Of a stretch of DNA of 54,892 nt, positions 29,974 to 52,360 are shown piece by piece. A model generated the notes under the pieces. It made no database searches. It saw only the letters and a list, made by a program, of their open reading frames with translations, and had not been told where the DNA came from. The first letter of the stretch is position 1. Each line of letters begins with the position of its first letter. The DNA comes from a virus (Duplodnaviria; Heunggongvirae; Uroviricota; Caudoviricetes). The stretch lies in IMG/VR virus record IMGVR_UViG_2568526312_000015; one strand, written 5' to 3'. A program made the translations under genes and the position numbers.

Positions 29974-31302
29974 ATGACGTGGAAAGACAGACTTCAGGAC
30001 GCGTCATTTCGCGGTGTGCCGTTTAAGGTTGAAGAAGAAAGTGCGGGAACCGGTCGTCGTGTGGAAACGCACGAATACCCGAACCGCGACAAACCCTATA
30101 CCGAAGACCTGGGGAAAATCACTTTCCGCCCGTCCATCACAGCTTATGTGGTGGGAGATGACTGCTTTGACCAGCGCGATCGCCTGATTGACGCGCTGAA
30201 TAAACCCGGTCCCGGCACGCTTGTCCATCCGACTTACGGTGAGCTGAAAGTCTGTGTTGACGGGGAAGTTCGGGTCAGCACATCGAAGAGTGAAGGGCGT
30301 ATTGTCCGCTTTGACCTGAAGTTTGTCGAAGCGGGAGAACTCTCTTACCCCACTTCAGGTGCGGCGACGGCGCAGACGCTGATGTCATCCTGTTCTGCAC
30401 TGGATGACTGCATCAGTGACAGCTTCAGTGGTTTCAGTATCGATGGCGTGGCAGATTTTGTGCAGAACGACGTCGTCGGTAATGCCAGCACAATGCTTGG
30501 GTATGTTTCTGATGCGATGAAAGTGGTGGATTCTGCCGTATCGGATGCCGCCAGGCTGTTGCAGGGGGATATCTCGGTACTTCTGCCGCCACCATCGTCA
30601 GGCAAAAATTTCGTTGAGCAGGTGCAGAAAATGTGGCGTACCGGGAAACGCCTTTATGGTAACGCCAGCGACCTGGTCACCATGATCAAAACGCTTTCCG
30701 GTGTCAGCCTCGGCAGCGATCTGCAACCGCGCGGCGTCTGGAAAACGGACAGTAAAACTACCGCCACGGCGACGCAGCAGCGTAACGTGGTTGCCAGCAC
30801 CCTTCGTACGACCGCAATCAGCGAAGCGGCGTATGCCGTCACACGATTGCCTGCGCCCACAACTTCCGCGGTGATGCAGAATGCCACAGTAGGGCAGTCA
30901 ACAACACCCGCGCAGAGCACCGGCTGGCCTTCTGTCACGCATCCGGCACTGAACAATGCACCGGCGGTGAAAAACACGGTTGACCTGCCAACGTGGGAAG
31001 AACTGACCGACATTCGCGACACACTGAATACGGCAATTGATAAGGAGTTGTCCCGTACAACCAGTGATGCGCTGTTTCTGGCGCTGCGCCGGGTGAAAGC
31101 AGATCTGAATGCGGATATCAACACGCGCCTTGAACAGTCTGCACGGATCATTCAGCGCACGCCGGATGAGGTTTTACCCGCGCTGGTGCTGGCGGCGACC
31201 TGGTTTGATAACGCGGCGCGTGACGCGGACATTATCCGGCGTAATGCCATTACGCATCCCGGCTTTGTGCCGGTGATCCCTCTGAAGGTGCCAGTGCAAT
31301 GA
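29974..31302 (+). CDS. Mu gpN-like DNA circulation protein
   Basis: ATG with GGAG RBS; Mu-type tail gene order. Confidence 0.65.
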   Translation: MTWKDRLQDASFRGVPFKVEEESAGTGRRVETHEYPNRDKPYTEDLGKITFRPSITAYVVGDDCFDQRDRLIDALNKPGPGTLVHPTYGELKVCVDGEVRVSTSKSEGRIVRFDLKFVEAGELSYPTSGAATAQTLMSSCSALDDCISDSFSGFSIDGVADFVQNDVVGNASTMLGYVSDAMKVVDSAVSDAARLLQGDISVLLPPPSSGKNFVEQVQKMWRTGKRLYGNASDLVTMIKTLSGVSLGSDLQPRGVWKTDSKTTATATQQRNVVASTLRTTAISEAAYAVTRLPAPTTSAVMQNATVGQSTTPAQSTGWPSVTHPALNNAPAVKNTVDLPTWEELTDIRDTLNTAIDKELSRTTSDALFLALRRVKADLNADINTRLEQSARIIQRTPDEVLPALVLAATWFDNAARDADIIRRNAITHPGFVPVIPLKVPVQ

Positions 31303-32378
31303 ACGACAATGTCACGCTACGGGTAAATGGCCGGGAGTGGAATGGCTGGACATCGGTGCGCATCGGTGCCGGTATTGAACGGCTGGCGCGGGATTTCAGT
31401 GTGGAGATCACTCGCCAGTGGCCGGGAGATGAGGGTATCACCACGCTTCAGCCGCGCATTAAAAACGGTTCAAAAGTGGAAGTGCTGATTGGTGATGAGC
31501 TGGTGATCACCGGCTGGGTGGAGGCGACTCCCGTTCGTTACGATGCCCGTTCGGTCAGCACCGGTATTGCCGGACGTAGTCTGACGGCTGACCTGATTGA
31601 CTGTGCAGCCGAACCGACACAGTTTAACGGACGCTCGCTGGTGCAGATTGCGCAGGCGCTTGCTGCGCCTTTCGGCATTGAGGTGGTGAACAGCGGTGCG
31701 CCGTCGGGTGTTATTCCTGATGTTCAGCCTGATCACGGTGAAACGGTGATTGAGGTTATCAACAAAATACTCGGTCAGCAGCAGGCGCTGGCTTACGACG
31801 ATCCGCACGGCAGGCTGGTGATTGGCGGTATTGGCTCAACGCGGGCACATACCGCGCTGGTACTTGGGGAAAACATCCTTTCCTGTGATACGGAGAAGAG
31901 TATCCGGGAGCGGTTTTCTGTTTACCAGGTGGCGGGGCAGCGTGCCGGAAACGACGATGATTTCGGTGAGGTCACCACCACCGCGCTGCGGGCCCGCACA
32001 GAGGACGCATTTATTGCCCGTTACCGTCCGATGTATATCAGGCAGACAGGGCAGGCCACGGGGGCAGGCTGTATTGCGCGTGCTGACTTTGAAGCCCGAC
32101 AACGGGCGGCGCGGACGGATGAAACCACCTATGTGGTGCAGGGCTGGCGACAGGGTAACGGTACGCTGTGGCAGCCCAACCAGCGGGTGATTGTCTTCGA
32201 TCCAGTCTGTGGTTTCGACAATACCGAACTGCTTGTCTCGGAAGTCACGTTTACTCAGGACCAGAACGGCACCCTGACGGAAATCCGTGTCGGCCCGCCT
32301 GATGCTTATCTGCCTGAACCCGAAGCCCCCGGCGCGCGGAAAAAGAAAAAAGCCAGAGTACAGGAGGACCCGTTCTGA
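31299..32378 (+). CDS. Mu gpP-like tail / baseplate hub protein
   Basis: 359-aa ORF in Mu-type order after the DNA circulation gene. Confidence 0.65.
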   Translation: MNDNVTLRVNGREWNGWTSVRIGAGIERLARDFSVEITRQWPGDEGITTLQPRIKNGSKVEVLIGDELVITGWVEATPVRYDARSVSTGIAGRSLTADLIDCAAEPTQFNGRSLVQIAQALAAPFGIEVVNSGAPSGVIPDVQPDHGETVIEVINKILGQQQALAYDDPHGRLVIGGIGSTRAHTALVLGENILSCDTEKSIRERFSVYQVAGQRAGNDDDFGEVTTTALRARTEDAFIARYRPMYIRQTGQATGAGCIARADFEARQRAARTDETTYVVQGWRQGNGTLWQPNQRVIVFDPVCGFDNTELLVSEVTFTQDQNGTLTEIRVGPPDAYLPEPEAPGARKKKKARVQEDPF

Positions 32379-32926: not shown

Positions 32927-33351
32927 TGGAACTGTGGCTGACGGTGAACGGTAAACGCACCTGCGCCAGCGCACCGCTGGATCCGCTGACCCGCGCCGTG
33001 GTGATTTCCCTGTTTACCTGGCGGCGGGCGGAGCCTGATGACAACGCCGACGTCCCGATGGGATGGTGGGGGGATACCTGGCCTGCGGTACAGAATGACC
33101 GTTACGGCTCACGACTGTGGCTGCTTCAGCGCAGCAAACTGACCAATCAGCTGGTGCAGACAGTAAGGGGGTATATCCGCGAATGCCTGCAATGGATGAT
33201 TGATGACGGCGTGGTGTCCCGTATTGATCTGGATATCCGCCGCACCGGGATTAATGAGCTGGGTAACAGTATCACCCTCTGGCGTCGTGACGGACCGGTA
33301 ATGATTTCTTTTGATGATCTGTGGAGTGCGATAACGCATGGCGGACAGTGA
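32923..33351 (+). CDS. GP46-family baseplate protein (Mu gp46-like)
   Basis: 142-aa ORF in Mu-type baseplate order. Confidence 0.55.
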   Translation: MMELWLTVNGKRTCASAPLDPLTRAVVISLFTWRRAEPDDNADVPMGWWGDTWPAVQNDRYGSRLWLLQRSKLTNQLVQTVRGYIRECLQWMIDDGVVSRIDLDIRRTGINELGNSITLWRRDGPVMISFDDLWSAITHGGQ

Positions 33352-34396
33352 ATTTCAGCGCCCGACGCTGGCAGAAAATATCAGTATGCTCCGTAACGAT
33401 TTATTCGCCAGGCTGGACGTCAGCGACACGCTCCGGCGCATGGATGAAGACGTGCGGGCAAAGGTGTATGCGGCGGCGCTGCATACGGTTTACGGTTACA
33501 TCGATTATCTGGCAATGAACATGCTGCCTGACCTGTGCGATGAGTCCTGGCTGGCGCGACATGCTGCGATGAAACGGTGTCCGCGCAAGGGGGCCACGGC
33601 TGCCAGCGGGTATATGCGCTGGGAAGGTGTCAGCGATGGCCTGAAGGTGACCGCCGGGAGCGTGATTCAGCGCGATGACCTGGTTCAGTACACGGCAACT
33701 GCTGATGCAACCAGCTCCGGTGGTGTCCTGCGCGTGCCGATCGCCTGCTCAAGTGCAGGCGCGGTCGGTAACGCTGACGACGGTACGGCATTAATCCTGG
33801 TCACGCCGGTGAATGGTCTGCCGTCTTCCGGTGTTGCAGATACCCTGACTGGCGGATTCGATACTGAAGATCTGGAAACGTGGCGCGCCCGCGTCATTGA
33901 GCGGTATTACTGGACGCCTCAGGGCGGGGCTGACGGGGACTATGTTGTCTGGGCTAAAGAAGTGCCCGGCATTACCCGCGCATGGACATACCGTCACTGG
34001 ATGGGAACGGGAACTGTCGGTGTGATGATTGCCAGCAGTGACCTGATTAATCCCATTCCGGAAGAATCAACGGAAACGGCGGCAAGACAACACATTGAGC
34101 CACTGGCCCCGGTGGCAGGCTCTGATTTGTATGTATTCAGGCCGGTGGCGCATAAAGTGGATTTTCATATCCGCGTGACGCCGGACACACCGGAAATACG
34201 GGCTGCCATTACCGCGGAGTTGCGTTCGTTCCTGCTGCGTGATGGTTATCCGCAGGGAGAACTCAAGGTATCGCGTATCAGTGAGGCGATTTCCGGTGCG
34301 AACGGGGAATACAGCCATCAGTTGCTTGCACCGGTGGACAATATCTCCATTGCGAAAAACGAACTGGCGGTACTGGGGACGATTTCATGGACGTGA
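33338..34396 (+). CDS. Baseplate J-like protein (Mu gp47-like)
   Basis: 352-aa ORF in Mu-type baseplate order. Confidence 0.7.
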
Positions 34397-34971
34397 CAAA
34401 CGATGATTACATCCGCCTGTTATCGGCACTGTTGCCGCCCGGTCCGGCGTGGTCAGCCAGCGATCCGGCGATTGCCGGTGCGGCACCGTCATTAACCCGT
34501 GTTCATCAGCGTGCGGATGCCCTGATGCGGGAGCTGGATCCTCGCACCACCACTGAACTGATAAACCGCTGGGAGCGTCTGTGCGGTCTGCCGGATGAAT
34601 GTATTCCGGCGGGAACGCAGACCCTTCGCCAGCGGCAGCAACGGCTGGATGCGAAGGTTAACCTGGCGGGCGGCATCAACGAGGATTTTTATCTTGCACA
34701 GCTTGCTGCCCTGGGCAGACCAGATGCCACCATCACGCGATACGACAAAAGCACTTTCACCTGCTCATCGGCCTGTACTGACGCGGTGAATGCGCCGGAA
34801 TGGCGGTATTACTGGCAGGTCAACATGCCAGCCACCACCAACTCCACCTGGATGACATGTGGCGATCCCTGTGATTCCGCACTGCGTATCTGGGGTGACA
34901 CCGTTGTCGAGTGTGTGCTTAACAAACTCTGCCCGTCGCAAACCTACGTAATTTTTAAATATCCGGAGTAA
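34387..34971 (+). CDS. Tail protein, DUF2313 / YmfQ-like (Mu gp48-like)
   Basis: 194-aa ORF immediately before the tail fibre gene, as in e14 and Mu. Confidence 0.6.
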
Positions 34972-34974
34972 TCC

Positions 34975-35745
34975 ATGCATCGTATAGACACGAAAACCGC
35001 GCAGAAGGATAAGTTCGGCGCGGGTAAGAACGGTTTTACCCGTGGTAACCCCCAGACCGGCACGCCTGCCACCGATCTGGATGATGACTACTTTGACATG
35101 TTGCAGGAGGAACTTTGCAGCGTGGTGGAGGCATCCGGTGCCAGCCTGGAGAAGGGGCGGCACGACCAGTTACTTACCGCACTTCGCGCGCTGCTGTTAA
35201 GCCGCAAGAATCCGTTTGGCGATATCAAATCGGATGGCACTGTGCAAACGGCTCTCGAAAACCTTGGTTTGGGAGAAGGCTCTGCATTACCTGTTGGTGT
35301 GCCTGTTCCATGGCCTTCAGCCACACCGCCAACAGGCTGGCTGAAATGCAACGGTGCGGCTTTTTCTGCTGAAGAATACCCGGAACTGGCAAAGGCTTAT
35401 CCGACAAATAAATTGCCTGATTTACGTGGTGAGTTTATTCGTGGCTGGGATGACGGGCGCGGTATTGATGCAGGACGTGTTTTATTGAGCATTCAGACAG
35501 GGATGCTGGAAAAACACCGCCATATTGTTGTTGCCAATGATGGTTACGACACAAAAGATGAATGGGAACTGGCTACGATTTTCAAAAAGACATACACACA
35601 AGGACGGGGACTTGATGCCACAAATACAGGAGGGAGTCTGATCCCATCACCGACACTTCATTCACGAGGGAGTATCGGTAATACTGGCGGGAGTGAAACC
35701 CGTCCACGAAATATTGCATTTAACTATATCGTGAGGGCTGCATAA
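34975..35745 (+). CDS. Tail fibre protein (constant N-terminus plus currently expressed variable C-terminus)
   Basis: 256-aa ORF; crossover site at 35254..35277 lies inside the gene; glycine-rich fibre-like C-terminus. Confidence 0.75.
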
Positions 35746-36347
35746 TGGATAACGCCGTATTAAATAGCGAGCTTATTGCCACGAAGGCGGGGAATATTAC
35801 CGTCTATAACTATGATGGTAAAACTCGGGAATATATTTCTACTTCAAATGAATATCTTGCCATTGGTGTCGGTATCCCTGCATATTCCTGTCTGGATGAA
35901 CCTGGTATACATAAGGCGGGTTATGCTATCTGCCGTTCGATGGATTTAAACTCATGGGAATATGTGCCAGACCATCGCGGTGAAATCGTCTATAACACCG
36001 AAACGGGAGACGCCAAAGAAATCACAGCTCCGGGTGATTATCCTGAAAATACAACCACTATCGCCCCGTTAACGCCATTCGATAAATGGGATGGTGAAAA
36101 ATGGGTGACAGATACTGAGGCACAACACGGTGCCGCAGTAGAAGCGGCAGAAGCACAGCGCCAGTCACTGATTGATGCAGCAATGGCTTCCATCAGTCTG
36201 ATTCAACTGAAATTGCAGGCCGGACGTAAACCGACGCAGGCAGAAACAACCAGACTTAACGCTGTGCTGGATTACATTGACGCGGTGACGGCAACAGATA
36301 CCAGCACCGCGCCGGATGTCATCTGGCCTGAACTGCCGGAGGCGTAG
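35745..36347 (+). CDS. Tail fibre assembly protein (Tfa, expressed orientation)
   Basis: 200-aa ORF immediately after the fibre gene; conserved Tfa C-terminal motif (DTSTAPDVIWPELP). Confidence 0.75.
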   Translation: MDNAVLNSELIATKAGNITVYNYDGKTREYISTSNEYLAIGVGIPAYSCLDEPGIHKAGYAICRSMDLNSWEYVPDHRGEIVYNTETGDAKEITAPGDYPENTTTIAPLTPFDKWDGEKWVTDTEAQHGAAVEAAEAQRQSLIDAAMASISLIQLKLQAGRKPTQAETTRLNAVLDYIDAVTATDTSTAPDVIWPELPEA

Positions 36348-36771
36348 GCCATTCAATATCTGGCGCACTGGAGGTATCAACCAGCTCCAGTGCATCCAGA
36401 TAATCCAGCCACAAATTATATTGCGCCAGTTCCTCACCTTTCAGACGACCAATAGCGGCTTTACCGGGCCATTGTTTACTGTTCATGTATTCGTTGGCCT
36501 GGTTAATTAGTAGCTGTCTTTCTGATTCAGTAATTTCAATAAGTTCTTCATGCGTGGGTGGAGGAATATCTGCCCACGCAGGCAGCCCATCATCTCCGGC
36601 AATACGGATTTTTCCTTGTGGCGGTTCAGCCATAAACTCACTGATAATATTTTGATTTACTTCCTTAGCGTCTGATAAATCCCATCCCTCTGATTTATAT
36701 TTATCAATCATATCCACAGGGAAAAAAGCATTATGCCTTGCGCTATAAACATATTCATTCATATAAATCAC
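36319..36771 (-). CDS. Alternative tail fibre assembly protein (Tfa', silent orientation)
   Basis: 150-aa ORF on the opposite strand inside the invertible segment; C-terminal motif DTSSAPDIEWPTPP mirrors the other Tfa. Confidence 0.7.
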   Translation of the reverse strand: MIYMNEYVYSARHNAFFPVDMIDKYKSEGWDLSDAKEVNQNIISEFMAEPPQGKIRIAGDDGLPAWADIPPPTHEELIEITESERQLLINQANEYMNSKQWPGKAAIGRLKGEELAQYNLWLDYLDALELVDTSSAPDIEWPTPPAVQAR

Positions 36772-36782
36772 CCTGAATAAAA

Positions 36783-37196
36783 TTACTCACCAACAGCCCA
36801 CCAACTGTAATTCATCGATACCGTGTCGCTGGTTGATGACGTTCTGTAAGCAGAATTAAAGCCGGTTAACGTTGGGCCTTCTGCAGTCATCACGAACCCT
36901 CGCCCAGCGCCTAAAGGCGCACCGCCATCACCAGAATGAGTAAGCATGGCGCAGTCCGCTTTTTTGGAGAAAGGGATGCTGAATGTAATTCTCATTGTTT
37001 GCGTCGATAATGTCGGCGTAACCGCACCACGACCATATTGCAGGATTTTCCCGTTGGGTAATTTCATCCATCCATCACCACTGGCAAAAGAGGCCATGTC
37101 CGGTATCTGATTTTCCCCTGTCCCCACATCCCGTTTTGCCGCTTCTCCCAAACCAACGTTTAAGAAAATGCAGAGATTATGGCTAACTGGCATCAT
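36783..37196 (-). CDS. Alternative tail fibre C-terminal segment (promoterless; fused to the constant part on inversion)
   Basis: Opposite-strand ORF whose 5' end coincides with the right crossover site; shares the GLGE junction with the expressed fibre. Confidence 0.65.
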   Translation of the reverse strand: MMPVSHNLCIFLNVGLGEAAKRDVGTGENQIPDMASFASGDGWMKLPNGKILQYGRGAVTPTLSTQTMRITFSIPFSKKADCAMLTHSGDGGAPLGAGRGFVMTAEGPTLTGFNSAYRTSSTSDTVSMNYSWWAVGE

Positions 37197-37223
37197 CCCC
37201 GGTTTTTACTCAGGGGAATGCTC

Positions 37224-37778
37224 ATGCTTATTGGCTATGTCCGCGTATCAACAAATAACCAGAATACGGAATTACAGCGTAATGCGCTGGAGTGTGCAGG
37301 ATGTGAGCTGATTTTTGAAGACAAGATAAGCGGTACAAAGTCCGACAGACCAGGACTGAAAAAGCTGCTCAGGACATTATCGGCAGGTGACACGCTGGTG
37401 GTCTGGAAACTGGACCGACTGGGGCGCAGTATGCGGCATCTTGTCGTGCTGGTGGAGGAGTTGCGCGAACGAGGCATCAACTTTCGTAGTCTGACGGATT
37501 CAATTGATACCAGTACCCCAATGGGGCGCTTTTTCTTTCATGTGATGGGTGCCCTGGCTGAAATGGAGCGTGAACTGATTGTTGAACGAACAAAAGCTGG
37601 ACTGGAAGCAGCTCGCGCACAGGGACGAATTGGTGGACGTCGTCCCAAACTTACACCAGAACAATGGGCGCAGGCCGGGCGATTAATTGCATCAGGCGTT
37701 CCTCGCCAAAAGGTGGCGATCATCTATGATGTTGGTATATCGACACTGTATAAGAAGTTTCCGGTCGGAGATAAATGA
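37224..37778 (+). CDS. pin: Serine DNA invertase (Pin/Gin/Hin family)
   Basis: MLIGYVRVSTNNQ... with catalytic Ser region and C-terminal HTH; recalled as closely similar to Gin/Pin; adjacent to the invertible segment. Confidence 0.9.
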   Translation: MLIGYVRVSTNNQNTELQRNALECAGCELIFEDKISGTKSDRPGLKKLLRTLSAGDTLVVWKLDRLGRSMRHLVVLVEELRERGINFRSLTDSIDTSTPMGRFFFHVMGALAEMERELIVERTKAGLEAARAQGRIGGRRPKLTPEQWAQAGRLIASGVPRQKVAIIYDVGISTLYKKFPVGDK

Positions 37779-37838
37779 AACCGTAGCACGTCGTATGCAA
37801 GAAGATCGTGCTGCGGTTTATGCTTATCACTTAAAGAC

Positions 37839-38708
<870 letters not shown>

Positions 38709-39427
38709 CTAAGTCTTTGAATTTACATAGTACAAAAAAGATACTTTTCCTCATAATGTGAATTAATTTTATGTTTCGTTTGATGATTGGACCGGTCTCG
38801 AAAACCGGAGTAGGGGCAACTCTACCGGGGGGGCAAATCCCCCTCTCTCCGCCACTTTATCAATGACTTATCTCCCGACTTCCCGCCTTGCTTTTCCTAA
38901 ACAGAACAATCGTAGAATATTCTTGAAGGGTTAGATCGTCACTGTTTTCTGTTCGATACTGTGACATTCAGCACTTGATTCGCTATGGATCTGACAGGAA
39001 GGTTTCGAGCGAAAATCTGCAGTTATTCAGTCGTTTTCTTATCGGTCACCATTATTCTTTTAGACATTGATCCTACAAAGCTGCCGCAAAGTTGGTGGTG
39101 GGAACTGAAGTTGCGTAGAGAAGGGGTCAATACCCGGAGGCAAACATGGGCTGGCAAAAGTGTAGCGGTATTAGGCGCAGCTATTTAGCCTAGTTATGTT
39201 TTATGAAAACTTGATATCATATAAGTGTCTTACTTATTGGCTGTAAATAAGTTTTTCCTAAGGAATTGTTTCTTGAGTATCATTTGTAACTGTAACGGAA
39301 TTTATAATCCTTTGCTTTATTGTTACGGTATTTTTTATCACACCCTATTTTTAGTGGTTTTTTATACTGAAGTTTGGCAAAGTGAACTTTATATACATAT
39401 ACTTCATCCTGGTTTCAGTTAAATTGG

Positions 39428-40180
39428 GTGGATGATATGGCAACTACATGTTCAGTTATATTGATTTTGGAGTCCTTTGATGTTTATTTCGGAAAAGAGA
39501 GTGTGTTTCTGGAGAGAGGTTCATCTGTACTTGTCGACTCTAGCTCTAGAGATTTTTTCCTGACATATCCTGAAAGAGTGATAGTGGCGGATTTTGGCGC
39601 TGAGTTTATTAGTCGCTATTTGAAAGCTAATAACTTAAGGGATATTTCTGATTGTAGGGAATATCCATCTTATTTAAAAATAAACTTTGCTGACTTCAGT
39701 TTAATTAAAGGATTAATTAGTTGGGCTAATCACTGTGCTGAATACATAGAAATTTTTGATGAGTCTATTGCTTTTACATGTCTCTCTGCATTTTCTTCTG
39801 AAAAACAATTTGGAGTATTTCTGTTTGGATGTTTGAAAAGCACAGGGGCTAAAGTTAAAACGATTATTCATACGGATTTATCTGCACCATGGCGTCTTAA
39901 GGATATATCATCAAGATTATATCTCAGCGAAAGTTTACTAAAGAGGAAATTGAAAGAAGAGGGGGTATCATTCAGTAAGATCATACTTGATGAGAGGATG
40001 CAAATGGCTGAATATTTACTCAGCACTCGTTGTTATCCTATTAGTAAAGTAGCTAAGGTCTGTGGTTATGCCAGTGTCTCATACTTTACTTATGTATTTA
40101 GACGTTATTTTGGTGTTTCTCCAAGTCAATACTCTCAGAGGAGTTCAGAAAGTAAAATTCTTACTCACCAGGGAATCTGA
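39428..40180 (+). CDS. AraC-family transcriptional regulator (cargo gene)
   Basis: 250-aa ORF; C-terminal double HTH region (ISKVAKVCGYASVSYFTYVFRRYFGVSPSQY); low-GC gene. Confidence 0.7.
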   Translation: MDDMATTCSVILILESFDVYFGKESVFLERGSSVLVDSSSRDFFLTYPERVIVADFGAEFISRYLKANNLRDISDCREYPSYLKINFADFSLIKGLISWANHCAEYIEIFDESIAFTCLSAFSSEKQFGVFLFGCLKSTGAKVKTIIHTDLSAPWRLKDISSRLYLSESLLKRKLKEEGVSFSKIILDERMQMAEYLLSTRCYPISKVAKVCGYASVSYFTYVFRRYFGVSPSQYSQRSSESKILTHQGI

Positions 40181-40221
40181 TCATTGTTCTTGCCCCCTTA
40201 TTTCCAGACAGGGGGTGTATC

Positions 40222-40587
40222 TTAAGTTAACGTTACCCGCTGACGTCGATATTCTCGCGGAGAGCGATAACCCAACGCACTGTGCGGATGGTTTTCATTG
40301 TAATGTTCGATCGCCACTGCAAGATTATGCAATGCCGTTCTTACATTCGGTTTCGGCATGAACGCGATATAGTCTTCCTTCATCGTTTTCACGAACCTTT
40401 CTGCAATTCCATTACTCTGAGGACTGCTGATTGCCGTTGTGCAGGGCTCCAGATTCAACTCTCTGGCGAACTGCCGTGTTTCATGCGCTCTATACGCTGA
40501 ACCGTTATCTGTCAGCCACTGGATGGACTGTTCCGGTACTTTATCGCCAAAGCGTTTTTCTATCGCTCCTAACATGACATCCTGCAC
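40222..40587 (-). pseudogene. Remnant of an IS3-family (IS2-like) transposase orfB, C-terminal part only
   Basis: 121-aa fragment with the DDE-domain C-terminal pattern (WLTDNGS.YRA...[11 protein letters not shown]...[19 protein letters not shown]); no 5' portion or intact IS ends. Confidence 0.7.
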
Positions 40588-40934
40588 TGTCGCTTTATCG
40601 TAACCTCCCGTGCTTGCGGCCCAGTCTATGGCTTCACGATCGCAACAGTCCAGGGCGATTCATCTGGGCCAATCCTCGCTCATAACAGGCATTCACTTCA
40701 GTCATGGCAGAAAGGTATGCATGCTGGAGAAGTCGTGAAAGAAAAGAAGACTGCTGCGCCGTTTGTCGTCACGTTTATCTTCATTGGCTATGCAAGTCGT
40801 AATACAAGGTGGGACAAAACTGAGACACATAAGGCCTCGCAATGGCTTGCAAGGCTTTACATGTTTTGATGTGGTGGGACGTGTGAGCGCAGTGTTGATG
40901 GGGTAATGCTTTGAATTAGAAGCGGATTCTTATA

Positions 40935-40980
40935 ATTCGTAATGCGAAGGTCGTAGGTTCGACTCCTATTATCGGCACCA
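40935..40980. repeat. attR of the prophage: exact 46-bp copy of the thrW 3' end (also marks the proximal end of the P4-like island)
   Basis: Identical to 1399..1444; lacks the 5' half of the tRNA. Confidence 0.85.
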
Positions 40981-41142
40981 TCTCAACTTCCTCAAACGTC
41001 CGTATTAGTCCATAAAATCTCTGATTTATAACATTTTTTATTCTTTTAAGTCCATAGTAGTCCGTAACCATCCAGTAGAATCCGGTACTGAATGTGTATA
41101 GGATTGTGTATATGTTCCTGTTCGGTCTGGATTCCTATACAC

Positions 41143-42324
41143 ATGCCTTTAAACGATATGCAGATTCGCCGCGCTAAGCCTGAAGCTAAAGCCTATACAT
41201 TTGGAGATGGGCTAGGGTTGTCATTACTTATAGAACCTAATGGAAGCAAGAGTTGGCGGTTCCGCTATCGCTATGCCGGCAAACCCAAAATGATCTCGCT
41301 TGGTGTTTACCCAACGATCACCCTTGCCGATGCTCGTTCCCGTCGTGATGAAGCTCGAAAACTTGTGGCAGAAGGAAAGAACCCTAGTGAGGTTCGAAAA
41401 GAGCAAAAGCTAGCTATGCAAACAGAGTCAGAGAACGCCTTCGAAAAGATAGCCAGAGAGTGGCATCAACTTAAATCTGCTAAATGGTCGGCGGGATATG
41501 CATCAGACATCATGGAAGCGTTTAAGAACGACATTTTTCCTTATGTCGGAACAAGGCCTGTGGGAGAGATTAAACCGCTAGAGCTGCTGAACGTTCTGCG
41601 TAAAATTGAGAAACGTGGTGCGTTGGAGAAAATGCGCAAAGTGCGGCAGCGTTGCTCCGAAGTGTTTCGCTACGCAATTGCAACGGGTAGGGCGGAGTAC
41701 AATCCTGCGGCTGATCTCTCCAGCGCTCTCGAAGTACACCAATCCAATCATTTCCCATTCCTAAAAGCTGATGAGATACCTGATTTTCTACGTGCCTTAG
41801 AGGGTTACTCCGGGAGTAAGCTTGTCCAGATAGCCACGAAATTACTGATGATTACGGGTGTGAGAACCATCGAATTACGCGCGGCATTATGGCAAGAATT
41901 TGATCTGGATAACGCTATTTGGGAAATTCCTGCTGAAAGGATGAAAATGCGTAGGCCACATCTTGTGCCCTTATCATCTCAAGCGGTAGATTTACTCAAT
42001 GAACTCAAGATCATGACAGGGAACTATCGTTATGTTTTTCCAGGGCGGAACGATCCGAATAGGCCAATGAGCGAAGCGAGTATAAATCAAGCCATTAAGC
42101 GTATTGGGTATGGAGGAAAAGTCACTGGACATGGTTTTCGTCATACCCTTTCTACAATCCTGCATGAGCAAGGTTTTGAGAGTGCTTGGATTGAAATCCA
42201 GTTGGCTCATGTAGATAAAAATTCTATTAGGGGGACTTATAACCATGCTCAATATTTTAGTGGAAGGAAGTCTATGATGGACTGGTACAGTAATTTGATA
42301 TTTGAAAGACTAAAAAGGAGTTAA
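41143..42324 (+). CDS. P4-type tyrosine integrase
   Basis: N-terminal LNDMQIRRAKPEAKAYTFGDGLGLSLLIEPNGSKSWRFRYRYAGK pattern typical of P4-family integrases; C-terminal catalytic region with HGFRHT. Confidence 0.88.
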   Translation: MPLNDMQIRRAKPEAKAYTFGDGLGLSLLIEPNGSKSWRFRYRYAGKPKMISLGVYPTITLADARSRRDEARKLVAEGKNPSEVRKEQKLAMQTESENAFEKIAREWHQLKSAKWSAGYASDIMEAFKNDIFPYVGTRPVGEIKPLELLNVLRKIEKRGALEKMRKVRQRCSEVFRYAIATGRAEYNPAADLSSALEVHQSNHFPFLKADEIPDFLRALEGYSGSKLVQIATKLLMITGVRTIELRAALWQEFDLDNAIWEIPAERMKMRRPHLVPLSSQAVDLLNELKIMTGNYRYVFPGRNDPNRPMSEASINQAIKRIGYGGKVTGHGFRHTLSTILHEQGFESAWIEIQLAHVDKNSIRGTYNHAQYFSGRKSMMDWYSNLIFERLKRS

Positions 42325-42327
42325 TTT

Positions 42328-42744
42328 GTGTCTCAACCACTTTCGGAAATATTGACATGGGATGATGAACAATGGGAGGTATTTGTCCATGATTGGCTTA
42401 TTGTCTGTAAATCAGATGATTACCCGTGGAGCGAACGTTTGGGAGGAGCTGGAGATAAAGGTAGAGACGTTGTTGGATATAAATCGGATCCTAACGTAGA
42501 AGGTTATTCTTGGGATAATTATCAATGCAAACTGTACAAAAAAAGTTTAGGGTTCTCTGATGTTGTAGTTGAGTTTGGAAAACTTATCTATTTTACTCTG
42601 AATGGTGATTATCCCATCCCTCAGAAGTACTTTTTTGTGGCACCCTATGATTTATCTACTACATTTTCTAATTTATTGAAAAATAAAAACGAGCTTAAAA
42701 AAGCAGTCCTTGATTCATGGGATTCAGCAATTTCAAAAAAATAA
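42328..42744 (+). CDS. Mrr-type PD-(D/E)xK nuclease-domain protein (N-terminal part of the candidate effector)
   Basis: GTG start 4 nt after the int stop with an AAAGGAG RBS; motifs GGAGDKGRDVVGY and YQCKLYKK fit the Mrr-catalytic-type GDxGxD...QxK pattern; ends in an A7 run. Confidence 0.6.
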   Translation: MSQPLSEILTWDDEQWEVFVHDWLIVCKSDDYPWSERLGGAGDKGRDVVGYKSDPNVEGYSWDNYQCKLYKKSLGFSDVVVEFGKLIYFTLNGDYPIPQKYFFVAPYDLSTTFSNLLKNKNELKKAVLDSWDSAISKK

Positions 42745-43334
42745 CTAAAAAGATTGATATTCCATTAGATGATGAAATAAAAAAATATATTGAGGATTTT
42801 GATTTTAGTATTTTTTACTCTCTACCCTTATCATTGATTTTAAATGATATTGCAAATACACACCTTTATTTTAAGTACTTTAACGAGCTGTATGTCGTGA
42901 GAATCCCTCCAAATGAAATTCCAACATACAATTCAAAAAAAGAGTCTGTATATGTTAATGCACTGCTTCAAGCCTATTCAGAGCATGGAAATAAAACTTA
43001 TAGTTCTTTCTTAGAGCTTGATGATCCATACAGACGACACTTTAATAATAGTAGAAATGATTTTTATTTTGCATCTTCGCTTGAGGTTTTTGTCCGCGAA
43101 GTATTTAAAGATGATGTATTCAAAGCATTGAAATGTTACATTTCATCTTCAATTGAACCCGTCTTTTATGAAGACCATAATTATGCATTTATTAGGTGTA
43201 ATGCAGTCTTGAAGCAGGCTGTTCTGACACCAATTGCACATTCAGTACTATCAAAAATATGTGAAGCAAATGATAAAAAAGGAATATGCCATCATTTGGT
43301 TAATGATGGTGAAGTAATTTGGACGGTGAGATAA
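42717..43334 (+). CDS. Hypothetical protein; probable C-terminal continuation of the nuclease-domain protein (reached by a -1 shift in the A7 run)
   Basis: Overlaps the upstream ORF by 28 nt in the -1 frame; A_AAA_AAA heptamer at 42735..42741; AT-rich. Confidence 0.5.
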   Translation: MGFSNFKKITKKIDIPLDDEIKKYIEDFDFSIFYSLPLSLILNDIANTHLYFKYFNELYVVRIPPNEIPTYNSKKESVYVNALLQAYSEHGNKTYSSFLELDDPYRRHFNNSRNDFYFASSLEVFVREVFKDDVFKALKCYISSSIEPVFYEDHNYAFIRCNAVLKQAVLTPIAHSVLSKICEANDKKGICHHLVNDGEVIWTVR

Positions 43335-43792
43335 TGGTTAGAATTTATAATTCAAGTTTAGAAGTGGCATGTCGAATGGCGAAAGTGCTCGTCGCTATTT
43401 ATCCTTCTTCATTAAGCCTTGAACGGCTTATTTGTTTTGATTTTATTTTAGTAAATCTTAAGGATTTTTTACCTGAAGAGATTAGTCTTCATCCTCCAAT
43501 ACCCCGTAGAGATGCTCAGTTAGCCCTAAAACGAGAGATTGTTTTAGAATCATTGGCTTTGTTGCAAGGCTATGAACTAGCCTCAAAAATTTATACACAT
43601 CGTGGTTTTGTATATAAAGCTTCTGAAAAAACATATGCATTTACAAATTCTCTACATAATGAATATGTTGCGCAGATGGAGCATAATATAAATTTGGTGG
43701 TTAAGTTATATAGTGATATTCCTGATGAGCAGTTGCAATCAATTATAAAAAATAAAATTGGCAAATATGATATGGAATTTAATTATGAATGA
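43334..43792 (+). CDS. Hypothetical small protein (middle component of the candidate system)
   Basis: 152-aa ORF; ATG overlaps the upstream stop (TAATG) and its own stop overlaps the next start (ATGAATGA). Confidence 0.5.
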   Translation: MVRIYNSSLEVACRMAKVLVAIYPSSLSLERLICFDFILVNLKDFLPEEISLHPPIPRRDAQLALKREIVLESLALLQGYELASKIYTHRGFVYKASEKTYAFTNSLHNEYVAQMEHNINLVVKLYSDIPDEQLQSIIKNKIGKYDMEFNYE

Positions 43793-44417
43793 CAATTTTT
43801 TTACGTTCAGAAAAATAAAGGTAACCGGATTCAATAAATTAGATGCTATAATTGAATTTGGTTCTAAATTGACTATTTTATATGGTGGTTCTGACTCTGG
43901 AAAAACATACATATATTATTTGATTCGATATTTATTAGGGAGTGAAAAACTAAAAAATAAAGATATCGATCATGCTCAAGGTTATGATTTAGCCTATCTG
44001 GAATTTAATTTTCAAGGTAGGGTAATGACAATTGAGAGGTCTCTTCAGGATAGCGCCCATTACAGATTATATGATTCGAGCATTGAAAATGTTAGTGAAG
44101 CTAATCTGTTGATGGTTTTTTCCAAAAGTGCTTCGTCTAAAAAGAGTTTTTCATCATACTTTTATGGTAGGTTGAATTTCAAAGAGGCTAAAGTAAGAAC
44201 AAACTTAAGTAATACTCTTCATAAATTTAATCTTAATAATGTTTTTGAATTTTTTTGTATTGATGAATTAAGAGTGTTAACTGAGAAGTCGTTAATTCTT
44301 TCTGATATTCCTAGCGAGGAGACAAAAAGAAAGTCTGAATTTAAATTCCTTTTAACTCAGAGAGATGATACTAACTCCTTAGCAGAAAAACCAAATAAAA
44401 AAGCAAGATATTTTTAA
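43785..44417 (+). CDS. SMC/ABC-type ATPase, N-terminal head (Walker A)
   Basis: FTFRKIKVTGFNKLDAIIEFGSKLTILYGGSDSGKTYIYYL: SMC/RecF-like N-terminus with P-loop GGSDSGKT; ends at an in-frame TAA. Confidence 0.6.
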   Translation: MNDNFFTFRKIKVTGFNKLDAIIEFGSKLTILYGGSDSGKTYIYYLIRYLLGSEKLKNKDIDHAQGYDLAYLEFNFQGRVMTIERSLQDSAHYRLYDSSIENVSEANLLMVFSKSASSKKSFSSYFYGRLNFKEAKVRTNLSNTLHKFNLNNVFEFFCIDELRVLTEKSLILSDIPSEETKRKSEFKFLLTQRDDTNSLAEKPNKKARYF

Positions 44418-45038
44418 AAAAATCAAATTGCAAATATTTATGAGGAATTGAAAGCGCAATTAATTTATCCTGAATATGATCAAGTCATTGTTTCAAGAGA
44501 ACTTGAGAAAGTAGAGCAAGATATTGAATCATCGAAAGATATATTGAAAGGTATTGTTGATGCACTTGATGATAAGAAGCAATTATTAAAAGAGTTAAGT
44601 GATGAATTATATTCAATCAGTGACAGGGAAAAATACTTATCATTACTCATTGAAAGATTTAGTCTTCTTAAAGACCAATACTTTATAGATCTACAAAGAA
44701 TAGATGTTGTATCACAGGCGAATTTCTATTTAAATAATTTTGCAGATATTTATTGTGAGTTCTGTAATACACCGCAAAAAAAAGAAAATGAAATATCATA
44801 TGATGATTGTTTTTTGTCGTGTAATGCAGAAAAATTGAAAATCAAAAGCCAGCTGAAAGGATTAATTGAATCAATCGGATCTAATGTTCGCGAACATGAA
44901 TTAATTATGTTAAGAAAAAATGATGTTAATGAAATTTATCAATCAGAAAAAAGTGATTTTAAGACGTTAGAAGATAAAAATATAAAACAATACATTCATC
45001 TCTTGAATCACTTTATGAATATAAAGACAATCTTTTAA
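44418..45038 (+). pseudogene. Coiled-coil middle segment of the same SMC/ABC-type ATPase (separated only by an in-frame TAA; no ATG start)
   Basis: Same frame as 43785..44417; reading frame open immediately after the TAA at 44415..44417; helical heptad-rich sequence. Confidence 0.5.
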
Positions 45039-45604
45039 TGGATCACACAAAACATAGCATTCTATCTTCATTACAAGATAAAGAAGATGATGTTGACGAA
45101 CTTAAATACTCCGCCGAGGACTTTGACTCCTTAACAGTAGCTGATTTGTATGATATAGAAATAGCGATGCAAGACTTTTTGAATGATATAAATTTTGAAA
45201 ATTCTAAAGATAACAAAGTGCGATTTGACGAAGATACATATGACTTTAATATCAATGGGAAACGCCGAGGAATGTTTGGTAAAGGTACCCGTGCAGTAAT
45301 GCATGCTATATTTACCATTTGCTTTGCGGAATTTTTATCAAGAAAAGGGAATCCATTCATTGGATTTGTTGTGCTTGATAGTCCATTAGTGACGCACTTT
45401 GATAAAGATAGAGGGGGTTCTCTATCGGATGTTAATAGCGTCAGTCTCAGTGATTCATTTTATCACGCATTAATCAAAAGGGACTATAATTTCCAGATTG
45501 TAATTCTTGAGAATAAAGGTCCGACGTTCCAAATAAAAATTAATGATGCAAATAAAATCCATAACTTAAATAAGAATGGAAGCTCTGGTTTTTATCCTGT
45601 TTAA
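45038..45604 (+). CDS. SMC/ABC-type ATPase, C-terminal head (signature-like and Walker B)
   Basis: GKGTRAVMHAIFTI (signature-motif-like) then FIGFVVLDSPL (Walker B) about 25 aa later; TAATG overlap with the preceding segment. Confidence 0.55.
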   Translation: MDHTKHSILSSLQDKEDDVDELKYSAEDFDSLTVADLYDIEIAMQDFLNDINFENSKDNKVRFDEDTYDFNINGKRRGMFGKGTRAVMHAIFTICFAEFLSRKGNPFIGFVVLDSPLVTHFDKDRGGSLSDVNSVSLSDSFYHALIKRDYNFQIVILENKGPTFQIKINDANKIHNLNKNGSSGFYPV

Positions 45605-46013
45605 TACATTAAAAATATAACTGCTAATTGGGGTGCTCGAAATTATATTTCGTTTCGAGCGCTCAGTTCATTTCTAAATAATTTGCAAAATTATTTTGGG
45701 TACTTTCGCCTCTACACTTCCTTCGGGTGGTTCCACAATAATGGATCTCACCGGCGTTTGATATTTTATAATCTAACCCCTTAGCGCGCGCAGCCCCCCA
45801 CGCCTGCTCGCTTCGCTTAACAGACTGGTTTTCATGCATTCCGCAAATCGTCTCAGAAGCCACCACACAAGGGCTTTCGCGTCAAAAATGGTGCATGAGA
45901 ATCATGCGTTTTCATGCGCTATAGACATGCACTCATGCGCTCTCAGGCCAGCCAGGGAAAAGGCGTAAAAAATCCCAGTACTGGACCGGGATTACGTGGG
46001 CTTTTTTTGCTAA

Positions 46014-46286
46014 TCAGACAGGAATTTGCTGACGGCTTGACAGCTTTGACGCGGAGCCATAGCGATTGAGAGTTTGCTGTTGTTTTTCCGGCATTTGTGC
46101 TTTCTCTGATTCCTGTTCATTGCGCCGGGGCTTCATGATTATCGTATCCACACTTTCCAGTGCGGTAAATGTGTAGGAACATTCAAGATTCTGGCACTGA
46201 TACCATGAGCGTTTAACCGATGGTGCTTCATAGGCGGAGGTTCTGGCGTGTGCCGTCGTACCGCATTCGGGACATTTAAGTGCCAT
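46014..46286 (-). CDS. Ogr/Delta-family zinc-finger late transcription activator
   Basis: CPECGTTAHARTS...YQCQNLECSYTF pattern matching the P2 Ogr / P4 Delta C4 zinc finger. Confidence 0.8.
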   Translation of the reverse strand: MALKCPECGTTAHARTSAYEAPSVKRSWYQCQNLECSYTFTALESVDTIIMKPRRNEQESEKAQMPEKQQQTLNRYGSASKLSSRQQIPV

Positions 46287-46291
46287 TAATA

Positions 46292-46843
46292 TTACTCCTG
46301 CATGCCGTTAATGTAATCCAGACGTTGCTGAAAGCGCAGTTGTTGTGCAGGGGTGTAAGAGCTCTGGCAATCACGAACCATCATGGGGTCAGGCATCACA
46401 CCGGATTCATCCAGAATCATACGATAATCCCCGGCAATTTCAGGCGGTGTTATTGCCAGCTGGCGAACCAGAGCATTGCGTAATATACGGGACGCAACGT
46501 CAACCCCTCCGCGCCCCTTCAGGAACGGAGCCAGTGCAGATGTCAGGGCTGCTCCATTCGCCTGCATAAAATTGCTGAGAGCGTCTTCTGTGCAGGCCTC
46601 CATCAGTTGATGCTGCGAGTAAATGCATTCGCGCGCAGCACAGTTAATTTGCCATTTCAGCACATCCAGATGTTCCCGCTGTAATTCGAGCTGTCGAGCA
46701 TAATCTGCTGGTTTTTCCATGGCAGTGAGGAGTGATTCTATCTGTTGTTCAACGGCTTTTCGGCTCTCACTATGTCCAGCCCACAGAATACGGGCATTTC
46801 TAAAACTGATAAGCGCTTGGTCTGGAGTGACTCGGGCCATCAT
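46292..46843 (-). CDS. P4-like late-operon protein (possible Psu/Delta-region analogue)
   Basis: 183-aa helical ORF co-oriented and contiguous with the Ogr-like gene; assignment by position only. Confidence 0.4.
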   Translation of the reverse strand: MMARVTPDQALISFRNARILWAGHSESRKAVEQQIESLLTAMEKPADYARQLELQREHLDVLKWQINCAARECIYSQHQLMEACTEDALSNFMQANGAALTSALAPFLKGRGGVDVASRILRNALVRQLAITPPEIAGDYRMILDESGVMPDPMMVRDCQSSYTPAQQLRFQQRLDYINGMQE

Positions 46844-47592
46844 ACTGCTTTCTCCTTCTCAGCACGTTCCTGACGAACCTTCATTTTATGCATAGCTGCT
46901 GGAGAGAGTTTATTACTGAAATCCAGACGGGCCGCATAATCCGGGGCAACTCCCGCCAGTTTAAACACGGGGTCCTGTTCGGGCATCGCATCGTTAGTCA
47001 GAGCCGGTCTGGTGATATGTTTATGAATAAAATCTTTCAGCAGTGTGTCCGGGTCATTAACTGAATGCACCACACCGACAACTGCGCTGGCTTCCCTGCC
47101 CATTGTTGATTTGAGCAGGCTTAGTGTCTGGATTAGTGCTTTTCCATGCGACTGCATAAAATCTTCCCAGATTTGTTTTGCGCGAATACCCACAAGGGTG
47201 TCGTGCGCGTGGATATACTTTCCGGCTAATTCCGCAGCCTCCTGCGGCAAAAGTGCATTTTCGCTTTCCTGAGCCGCCAGCAGCTCATCAAAATCCTCAA
47301 GCGTTTCTCGTCCCAGCGCAATTTCCGTGCGCAGTTTTTTCATTTCCTTTGAGACTACGCCCTGACTTTCACGAAATAGCGTGCGCCACTCCTCATTCAG
47401 GGCGTTCGTCGTGGCTTCCATTTCAGCGCGGCGCTGGCGGATTGTCGCAATATTATCCGCTGCCGCTTTTTGCTGACGACGTGCTTCAAGCCATGCAGAT
47501 TTGGTGGCATTCACTTTCTCAAGCGCCTGTTGCGTCGAAACAGGGATAGAAATTTCAACGATCGGGTTATTGTTCTGTTCTGGGATTGTCAT
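46840..47592 (-). CDS. P4-like late-operon protein (possible Sid/Psu-type capsid-associated analogue)
   Basis: 250-aa coiled-coil-rich ORF at the head of the leftward operon; assignment by position only. Confidence 0.4.
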   Translation of the reverse strand: MTIPEQNNNPIVEISIPVSTQQALEKVNATKSAWLEARRQQKAAADNIATIRQRRAEMEATTNALNEEWRTLFRESQGVVSKEMKKLRTEIALGRETLEDFDELLAAQESENALLPQEAAELAGKYIHAHDTLVGIRAKQIWEDFMQSHGKALIQTLSLLKSTMGREASAVVGVVHSVNDPDTLLKDFIHKHITRPALTNDAMPEQDPVFKLAGVAPDYAARLDFSNKLSPAAMHKMKVRQERAEKEKAV

Positions 47593-47756
47593 GTCAGCAC
47601 CTAGTGGTTTGTCGTGGTGTCAATTGTGCTGTGATGCATACAAAGCTGCCATTGAACGCCATTGTGCGAGCGACAAGACAAAGACTGAACCGCCCCGGAC
47701 CTCTTTTGGCTAGCCAGAAAAGGCCTCGTTTAACTAAGGCTGTTTCAGACTTACCT

Positions 47757-47975
47757 TAACTATTCACTACTATTCACTTAGGTAAAAAAAATAGGTAATA
47801 CAGAAGGTTATAAGGTGAAGGGTTGGCATGGCAGTATTCATCGACTGTTCATAACTGTTCACATGGGAATAAAATTATTTATGGTATTTTTTCATAATGG
47901 GTGGTTTTTTTATTCCTCGTAGCTATTTGTTTTTTGCTCCTCACCACTATTCACCCTTATTCAGGAGTATTCAAC
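47757..47975. repeat. Iteron-like repeats (CTATTCAC and variants) in the divergent promoter region
   Basis: TAACTATTCACTACTATTCACTTA at 47757..47780 and CACCACTATTCACCCTTATTCAGGAGTATTCAAC at 47942..47975. Confidence 0.4.
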
Positions 47976-48525
47976 AGGCACATAAATAGACTGCATGTTT
48001 TTGCCGGGGAATAACATTTTCGCCTCTGGCCATGGTGTTGCATTTCATACTGATTTTTATAAAACTAGATCTGTCCGGTTCTTTATGGATTCATTCGGAT
48101 ATATTTTACGATTTAAGGTGATGTTATTTAATATCAAGGTTTTTATGCAGGCCCAATGTTTATAAGTTGGATGCGATTCAAAAATATGCCCGGAAATTGG
48201 GGCCTGCAATGCAAGGCCTCGTGTAGAAGTTGTACTGCCTTGCTGTATTGGCGGTGGGGTTAGCACTATCAGGTGCAATGACCCATAGGATAGTAAACCC
48301 TGGGTGAATGGTAGTTCCTATTAATGCTCCTGTATTTATAGTCCGCAGGCATGGTATTTATTATGTCATTTTATATGGTTTAATCGGGCTTTAAATTCCA
48401 TAAAATCAATATGTGACGCTAAATAAAAAATGCGTGCGCAGGTGGTTTATATACACATAATAAGGAACTACCTGAACCCGGATAAATTCATCCGGACTGT
48501 TGTGGAAATTAAAGAGGGTAGATAA

Positions 48526-48786
48526 ATGCGTAATATTTCTGTGTCTGCGCCAGCTCCTGCTGCGCCATTATTTCCTGTATCGAACCATCATGAGCGATTT
48601 TTACGCCTGCCTGAGGTGATGCACTTATGCGGGTTGTCCCGTTCGACCGTTTACGACCTGATCAGCCGCGATGCGTTTCCGAAGCAGATCCCGCTTGGCG
48701 GTAAAAATGTCGCCTGGGCACAGTCTGAGGTCAGCGCATGGATGGCGGACCGCATCAGCGCCCGTGGGCGGGGATGTGATGCATGA
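48526..48786 (+). CDS. AlpA-family transcriptional regulator (prophage regulatory HTH)
   Basis: [47 protein letters not shown] matches the AlpA-family pattern. Confidence 0.75.
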
Positions 48787-49340: not shown

Positions 49341-49558
49341 ACCAGTTTGAGATTTCCTACGACGATGTTGTAAGGCTGAAACATTTACGCAATGTGGGTG
49401 AGTATGTAACTGGCATGGCAGCCCTGCAGGACTGTTATGAAAAGCCAGCAGGTGCCCAATGCGAACAACTGGTTTCCCTCATTTATCTGATGACAGAGCA
49501 ACTGGATGGAGTGGTGCAACGCTGCCATGACGACCTGATGAATGCGGAGGTGGCCTGA
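49337..49558 (+). CDS. Hypothetical P4-like small protein
   Basis: 73-aa ORF in the operon upstream of the primase. Confidence 0.4.
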
Positions 49559-49881: not shown

Positions 49882-49894
49882 GGAGGGCCGCACA

Positions 49895-52228: not shown

Positions 52229-52360
52229 CTGACCTAAGACCGGCTGTGCCGGTCTTAAATCCGCTACAGGAAATTATCTCAAAATATATATCGATAAAAT
52301 TTAAAAGTTATATGCTAAGGCGTCAGCGGAAAATGCATCTAATTCATTGTTAGATGATGT

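Follow-up and report, generated by a model that had tools for sequence, protein, structure and literature searches.

The window analysed here, a stretch of 54,892 nucleotides (nt) recorded in IMG/VR as the virus IMGVR_UViG_2568526312_000015 (Caudoviricetes), raises the question of whether one of its tail-fibre genes can exchange its 3' end through inversion of the adjoining DNA. An earlier reading of the letters alone (hereafter the sequence-only reading) had placed inverted crossover sites at 35254..35277 and 37143..37166, flanking a ~1.9-kb segment with two opposed sets of a fibre C-terminus and its Tfa chaperone, and had seen a Gin/Pin-like invertase gene immediately to the right; the left site was taken to lie inside the expressed fibre gene, so that inversion would swap the receptor-binding fibre C-terminus together with its chaperone and thereby switch the host range. 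As described below, the locus is very probably an invertible tail-fibre switch of a prophage integrated at thrW, the same system as the P segment/PinE of prophage e14 and the G segment/Gin of phage Mu. The system as such is already known, from the pinE annotation in RefSeq and from homology to the e14 P and Mu G segments; a literature search on pinE inversion in O157 turned up nothing relevant.

Natural inversion between two inverted sites

The window matches chromosomes of Escherichia coli O157:H7. For the flipped state, positions 35264-37156 were inverted in silico at the central dinucleotides of the two sites, giving a 2951-bp query, and the search set consisted of 5426 complete E. coli genomes, each being counted when a single match covered at least 80% of the query. 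As 64% of the query consists of the segment, no genome with the opposite orientation can attain 80% coverage at a single place. The orientation seen in the window was found in 83 complete genomes and the flipped one in 81, and many of the flipped O157:H7 genomes match the predicted sequence at 100% over the whole 2951 bp in one piece. Moreover, near-identical cattle isolates (strains 113-141) were divided between the two orientations. Over 42,951 bp, strains 118 and 139 (both 5,453,897 bp) differ by nothing but the inversion: the flanks showed 0 mismatches in 20,364 bp and 20,694 bp, all of the 1401 differences fell within window positions 35279-37141, bracketing the natural breakpoints, and in-silico inversion of 35264-37156 left 0 mismatches. 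The difference between these strains is thus a site-specific inversion at these sites, whether it arose between the isolates or reflects mixed cultures resolved to their majority consensus. Both orientations, which the sequence-only reading had proposed to look for in a population, therefore exist, and exactly as predicted. Within clonal cultures, segments of e14, Mu and P2-like prophages have been documented to invert (PMC4272514; PMC12529663).

The inversion also has the consequence foreseen for the fibre. In the in-silico flipped state, the reading frame runs on through the junction, and a 220-aa fibre (aa, amino acids) replaces the 256-aa one, the two products having residues 1-97 in common; the second Tfa gene then begins 20 nt after the 220-aa fibre gene. 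These predicted fused genes are annotated by RefSeq in the flipped strain 139, and the 256- and 220-aa forms are both annotated in RefSeq genomes. Inversion thus swaps in frame the last 159 or 123 fibre residues along with the matching Tfa gene, and each tip acquires its own chaperone gene directly downstream.

The sites themselves, for which the coordinates of the sequence-only reading proved correct within 2 nt, are a pair of inverted 26-bp sequences whose centres enclose an invertible segment of 1891 bp, the left one following codon 97 of the expressed fibre gene. Written in a 12 + 2 + 12 format, the left site (as reverse complement) is TTCTCCCAAACC AA GGTTTTCGAGAG and the right site is TTCTCCCAAACC AA CGTTTAAGAAAA; the inner half-sites are identical at 12 of 12 positions and the full sites at 21 of 26, and the central dinucleotide AA is common to both once they are placed in inverted orientation. 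With half-site symmetries of 9/12 and 8/12, both are imperfect palindromes. In e14, Mu and five other phages, the crossover site next to the invertase aligns with the right site here.

Several searches set this pair apart from the rest of the DNA. A repeat finder applied to 33000-39000 returned one outstanding inverted repeat (arms 35259-35278 and 37142-37161, 20 nt, 95% complementary), the remaining inverted pairs being just 73-87% complementary. The degenerate core C-N4-AAACCNASGTTT-N5-R, with at most one mismatch, matched nowhere in the 54.9-kb window but at these two sites, where 0.23 were expected, and the observed number of matches (3) was reached in 0 of 100 shuffles; the 26-mer with at most three mismatches had zero matches across 100 shuffles. 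The 12-nt half-site is present exactly twice in the window. An inverted repeat that arose by chance and undergoes no inversion is refuted by these site statistics together with the exact natural inversions at the predicted breakpoints. A multi-state shufflon, like Min of p15B or the P2-like locus of enteropathogenic E. coli (EPEC), is ruled out, there being no further crossover sites in the window. With only two sites, the locus is therefore a simple two-site, two-state switch, the features of which are collected in Table 1.

Table 1. Positions of the switch and its neighbouring genes in the window (ORF, open reading frame; E values follow the family names)
Feature	Position	Strand	Description and support
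Baseplate_J/gp47-like gene	33338-34396	+	Pfam PF04865; RefSeq annotation of identical locus
Mu gp48/YmfQ-like gene	34387-34971	+	Pfam PF10076; RefSeq annotation of identical locus
Tail-fibre gene, whole	34975-35745	+	256 aa; Collar domain at residues 108-155
Constant fibre N-terminus, 97 aa	34975-35264	+	outside the invertible segment; ends ...ALENL at the crossover; ORF translation
Left 26-bp crossover site	35252-35277		within the fibre gene, after codon 97; central dinucleotide 35264-35265
Variable fibre C-terminus A (Collar type)	35265-35745	+	now fused to the constant part; Pfam Collar 1.9e-15
Tfa chaperone for tip A, TfaE-like, 200 aa	35745-36347	+	Caudo_TAP 4.8e-32; PHROG 105; 88.6% nt identity to e14 tfaE
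Tfa chaperone for tip B, 147 aa from RefSeq start	36319-36762	-	Caudo_TAP 2e-31; PHROG 188
Variable fibre C-terminus B, 123 aa	36783-37154	-	now silent; Pfam Gp53-like_C 1e-11
Right 26-bp crossover site	37143-37168		central dinucleotide 37155-37156, 68.5 bp upstream of the invertase start codon
Fixed 13-codon leader MPVSHNLCIFLNV	37155-37193	-	outside the segment, in frame across the right site into the silent C-terminus; ORF list
Pin-type DNA invertase, small serine recombinase, 184 aa	37224-37778	+	Resolvase 1.2e-51; HTH_7 5.7e-13
Candidate recombinational enhancer	37245-37308		within the 5' end of the invertase gene; two Fis-like 15-bp cores

The invertase and a candidate enhancer within its gene

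The gene immediately to the right of the segment encodes a Gin/Pin-like invertase, as had been supposed. The protein shares 95% of its residues with e14 PinE and about 78% with Mu Gin, aligns with the Gin structures 3UJ3/4M6F at an E value of 1e-93 over residues 1-181, matches PHROG 125 'DNA invertase' at 4.9e-97, and bears the name pinE in RefSeq; among NCBIfam models, none scored above cut-off for it. Translation most likely starts at 37224 (MLIGYVRVS...) and not at 37179, because RefSeq places the start at the former position, which is also where residue 1 of Gin aligns; the mechanical ORF from the upstream ATG at 37179 adds 15 residues without counterpart, and the start is corrected here in this sense. 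The catalytic Ser9, a mutation of which would have marked the enzyme as inactive according to the sequence-only reading, is intact, the motif VRVSTN being aligned to Ser9 of Gin. Also retained are R7, D64, R65, and R68, residues with catalytic roles in serine recombinases. At the positions to which Fis-independent Gin mutants map, the protein has the wild-type H106 and M114, the hyperactive crystal form of Gin having V114. These residues suggest a normally regulated, Fis-dependent invertase.

An enhancer-like site inside the invertase gene, which the sequence-only reading had suggested looking for, has a candidate near the 5' end. Two G-N13-C cores occur at 37245-37259 (GTATCAACAAATAAC) and 37294-37308 (GTGCAGGATGTGAGC), with AATTA and TAATG in between; the core centres are 47-49 bp apart, according to the register chosen, and 96.5 bp separate the first of them from the centre of the right site. 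For comparison, the hin enhancer, located about 100 bp from hixL, is 65 bp long; it has a Fis site at either end, with 47 bp between their centres, and ATTTA and TAATG between the Fis sites (PMC3798978). In an alignment of eight invertase loci (the window, e14, Mu, two Yersinia phages, mEp237, a P1-like phage, and a P2-like phage), the enhancer-like blocks are nearly invariant, even in mEp237, the protein of which is 56% identical. Synonymous-codon identity among these genes is 0.60-0.66 in the two cores versus 0.39-0.40 elsewhere in the first 140 codons, and the top two 6-codon windows among the 140 codons are codons 9-14 and 31-36; a 22-codon sliding window failed to single out the enhancer span, and only windows of 6 to 8 codons did so. 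The Fis motif is degenerate, the first core scoring only 6 of 12 specified positions, and the overlap of this core with the catalytic motif limits what its conservation can tell. Taken together, a cis-acting enhancer embedded in pin is plausible.

The very close homology to Gin and Hin points to a mechanism following that paradigm. Pin dimers would bind the two sites, and two Fis dimers would bind the enhancer in the first ~100 bp of pin, so that sites and enhancer would assemble into an invertasome on supercoiled DNA. Ser9 would then make staggered cuts at the central AA/TT dinucleotide, one subunit pair would rotate by 180 degrees, and the ends would be religated.

Cassettes shared with e14, Mu, and P2-like phages

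Within the segment, the two fibre C-terminus and Tfa sets are opposed as the sequence-only reading had them, with a Collar-type tip, a Gp53-like_C tip, and two Caudo_TAP genes. Tip A matches tail fiber and tail collar fiber families of PHROG, and tips A and B have unrelated folds (Collar versus gp53-like C), consistent with different receptors. The start codon of the Tfa gene for tip A overlaps the fibre stop codon (TAATG). No NCBIfam model matched any of the fibre and Tfa proteins.

The convergent Tfa genes share a 29-nt 3' overlap (36319-36347), like tfaP/tfaE in e14. Both end in a similar ...SxAPD(V/I)xWP... peptide, which is encoded on opposite strands and therefore also appears as a weak inverted repeat (36266-36283 / 36392-36409).

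Among the closest known systems is the P segment of e14 in E. coli K-12 (ymfQ-stfP-tfaP-tfaE-stfE-pinE), which has the same gene order as the window. The constant fibre N-terminus is 98.3% identical in nucleotides to the ymfQ/stfP-N region of e14, pin is 89% identical in nucleotides and 95% in amino acids, and the tfaE/stfE-type cassette is 88-92% identical in nucleotides and inverted relative to the K-12 reference, the first ~240 nt of tip A being 92% identical to e14 stfE in the opposite orientation. Furthermore, e14 has the same inner half-site TTCTCCCAAACC, the same AA centre, and the same distance from the right site to pin. The two differ in segment length (1891 bp here versus 1797 bp in e14, where the segment inverts in culture; PMC12529663) and in the second cassette, which has no blastn match in e14; its Tfa protein is 54% identical to the C-terminal half of e14 TfaP, that is, over half its length, and tip B is only 26% identical to the C-terminus of e14 StfP. 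In K-12, stfE is a pseudogene and e14 a 15-kb remnant; the window, by contrast, has a complete tip A and a prophage with a full virion gene set. Judged by these alignments, the window module and the e14 P segment are mosaic relatives and not one and the same segment, because the flanks, pin, and tfaE/stfE are orthologous (88-98% nt identity) but the stfP-C/tfaP cassette has been replaced.

Mu likewise shows the gene order of the window, 47-48-S-U-U'-S'-gin (Sc, [Sv-U / U'-Sv'], invertase), and its G(+)/G(-) host-range switch is the paradigm of such systems (cited in PMC4272514). The Mu sites share the AAACC-NN-GGTTT core with a GA centre in place of AA, and the Mu fibre N-terminus is homologous to that of the window up to the junction (33% identity to the N-terminus of Mu S, including ENL at the junction). 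The G segment of about 3 kb and the 504-aa Mu fibres are both longer than their counterparts here. Comparison of the variable tips with Mu S and S' showed no similarity outside the constant N-terminus, and the receptor specificities of Mu are therefore not transferable.

In a P2-like phage from O157:H43 strain T22 (KC618326), both cassettes and the invertase are ~90% identical in nucleotides over 74% of the query. There, the module is joined to a long fibre N-terminus of the P2 gpH type (499 aa) and lies between P2 tail genes. The module is thus one assembled from cassettes circulating among Mu-like and P2-like phages.

Two details of the KC618326 locus are recorded in passing. Its invertase-proximal site has an extra 16 nt in the alignment (CCAAGGTATGCGAGAAGACC...), resembling a second partial half-site, and its annotated invertase gene is shorter (495 nt).

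The Hin/hix flagellar switch of Salmonella, with its Fis enhancer, shares the enzyme family, 26-bp sites, and the placing of the enhancer in the recombinase gene ~100 bp from one site. Hin flips a promoter and not coding 3' ends, and the hin gene lies inside its invertible segment.

Prophage integrity, Sp1 remnants, and the role of flipping

The gene for tRNA-Thr (CGT), thrW, occupies 1369-1444 of the window, and its last 30 nt (1415-1444) are repeated at 40951-40980; the repeats bound a prophage of about 39.5 kb, with the switch near its right end. The prophage carries an integrase, a lambdoid early region, a lysis cassette, and a P27-type terminase, followed among its virion genes by an HK97-type head, a contractile Mu/e14-type tail, and a Mu-type baseplate. 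Prophage Sp1 of strain Sakai occupies the same thrW site, and the Sakai sequence is 99.2% identical over window positions 36066-54892, a span covering the second cassette, pin, the defence gene PD-T4-3, an AraC-family gene, and the P4-like Sp2. Because of this shared site and the identity from 36066 onward, the window prophage is, on sequence grounds, the full-length form of Sp1. Sakai Sp1 itself (examined at NC_002695.2 304629-308277; ECs_0280 to ECs_0284, pinE) is a 10.6-kb remnant without head or tail genes, which keeps early genes, the fibre module with its invertible segment, pinE, PD-T4-3, and the right-end cargo. It differs from the window in that the fibre gene directly follows replication pseudogenes and in the sequences of the fibre N-terminus and tip A.

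Directly after pin, a GIY-YIG gene at 37839-38612 (minus strand) gives an end-to-end PADLOC match to PD-T4-3 (E 2.4e-140). This anti-phage defence gene stands in the position held by the restriction enzyme McrA in e14, which suggests that the slot behind the invertase accommodates defence cargo.

Several observations weigh against reading the locus as a tail-fibre switch of the e14 and Mu kind at work in a phage. An IS629-like insertion of ~1.3 kb (16714-18021) interrupts the HNH endonuclease gene next to the terminase, immediately upstream of the gene for the P27-family small terminase; it encodes an IS3-family OrfA (108 aa) and OrfB (296 aa) of the IS629/IS1203 type, and its flanks overlap by 5 bp in the alignment, consistent with a target duplication. 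The insertion, which is absent from FRIK944 and strain 118 (otherwise 99.9-100% identical), could disable DNA packaging, and the window copy may perhaps yield no infective particles. The module of the Sakai-type remnant is also found in both orientations, in 124 complete genomes as in Sakai and in 92 flipped, and the near-clonal strains 107 and 109 are opposite in remnant orientation to strain 110. As a remnant without virion genes still flips, active flipping neither needs nor proves phage function. Flipping alone is no proof that particles with two host ranges are made; the change of host range would follow by analogy with Mu and P1. A simple promoter scan found no promoter for pin; more broadly, the scan for sigma-70 promoters and terminators over 34700-38000 gave no excess over shuffled sequence, and none near pin or reading leftward from the right site, and being no better than the shuffle it therefore carries no information on expression. 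Of the enhancer proposal, the candidate cores with their fitting spacing and distance stand, but the motif is weak and the second conservation peak (codons 31-36) falls just downstream of the predicted second Fis core, which leaves the enhancer boundaries uncertain; the sample behind the synonymous conservation is also small, at only eight related genes. Finally, residue 12 of the invertase is N (STNNQ, 37257), where the seven compared invertases (e14, Mu, and five others) have D12 (or a residue coded GAC/CCA).

The last of these points bears on whether the local enzyme acts at all. Position 12 is non-catalytic and is Q in gamma-delta resolvase, which counts against an inactive Pin, and we expect the N12 change not to matter. 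Should Pin nevertheless be inactive, for example through N12, another invertase of the genome might flip the segment in trans; the family cross-complements, and PinQ, 38% identical to PinE, inverts the e14 segment (PMC12529663). We regard this as highly improbable, given that the catalytic residues named above (Ser9, R7, D64, R65, R68) are all present and that strains 118 and 139 contain a single pin-module match, no second one being seen at megablast level, where more distant invertases were not searched for. The base change in codon 12 also turns the candidate first Fis core from ...AATGAC into ...AATAAC.

Flipping that does not benefit a phage could mean neutral persistence or could fit the recent proposal of a small chimeric protein, StfE2, made on inversion of the e14 segment. 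In the former case, the mechanism would be as described and the switch a relic, flipping in a defective prophage being neutral noise inherited from an ancestral phage. We consider this possible, though less likely than not. It would fit the IS629-like interruption of the HNH endonuclease gene, the Sakai Sp1 remnant, which flips equally well without virion genes, and e14 of K-12, which is cryptic yet flips (PMC12529663; PMC4272514). Set against it, the other head, tail, and lysis genes of the window are open, the strain 118 annotation is without pseudogenes among them, and the cassettes and pin are free of stops and frameshifts in 164 genomes. Moreover, remnants with extensive deletions still retain the module, a hint of selection, although its linkage to neighbouring cargo could explain this as well.

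In the latter case, a co-opted defence, the invertase-side leader would express the 'silent' tip as a small free protein that blocks other phages. An ATG frame, running in the window from 37193 down to 36783, crosses the right site in both orientations (its RefSeq product has 136 aa in the window state and 172 aa after flipping), comparable leaders of 12-14 codons run into the silent tip in e14 (stfE) and Mu (Mup52), and the leader ATG lies in a TGGCATCAT block between the right site and the invertase start that is conserved in 6 of 8 invertase loci. The module also survives in remnants beside PD-T4-3, and inversion of the e14 P segment is reported to make StfE2, which blocks T2 adsorption (PMC12529663). 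Nevertheless, the idea strikes us as improbable: the scan of 34700-38000 showed no promoter-like site reading leftward from the pin side, the TGGCATCAT block could equally serve pin expression, no PADLOC model matches the leader ORF, and the e14 StfE2 claim comes from one study and its docking models. Furthermore, StfE2 of e14 is formed from the StfP C-terminus, with which the gp53-like tip shares only 26% identity, and the reported T2 effect is therefore not transferable. If the proposal were true, the switch would gain a second output serving the host, in the form of phase-variable resistance to other phages, and the survival and flipping of switch, pin, and PD-T4-3 in Sp1 remnants without virion genes would be explained. 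Because the switch is active in a virion-less remnant beside a defence gene, Sp1 of O157 is a convenient natural system for testing the claimed takeover of such switches for host defence.

Under the preferred reading of a tail-fibre switch of the thrW prophage, only the slot with the constant N-terminus is positioned behind the late tail operon, so that each induced lysogen would make a single fibre type and the population both. Two fibre types across the population would widen the host range as a form of bet-hedging. Irrespective of its use, the locus, with half of the genomes in each orientation, creates heterogeneity within clones and gives rise to false differences among O157:H7 assemblies; typing by single-nucleotide polymorphisms and structural variants should therefore mask the locus or treat it explicitly.

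Outside the switch, the window and strain 118 have an undamaged baseplate assembly gene (31299-32378 and 359 aa in the window), which in FRIK944 is annotated as frameshifted, so that different isolates carry different inactivating lesions in this prophage. An iss/bor-like gene for an 'increased serum survival' lipoprotein lies at ~15764-16057 (minus strand) after the lysis cassette, according to the identical FRIK944 annotation. From 41143 onward, directly after the prophage, the P4-like satellite (Sakai Sp2) carries genes for an integrase, an 'ABC-three component system', psu, an ogr/delta-like protein, and a primase.

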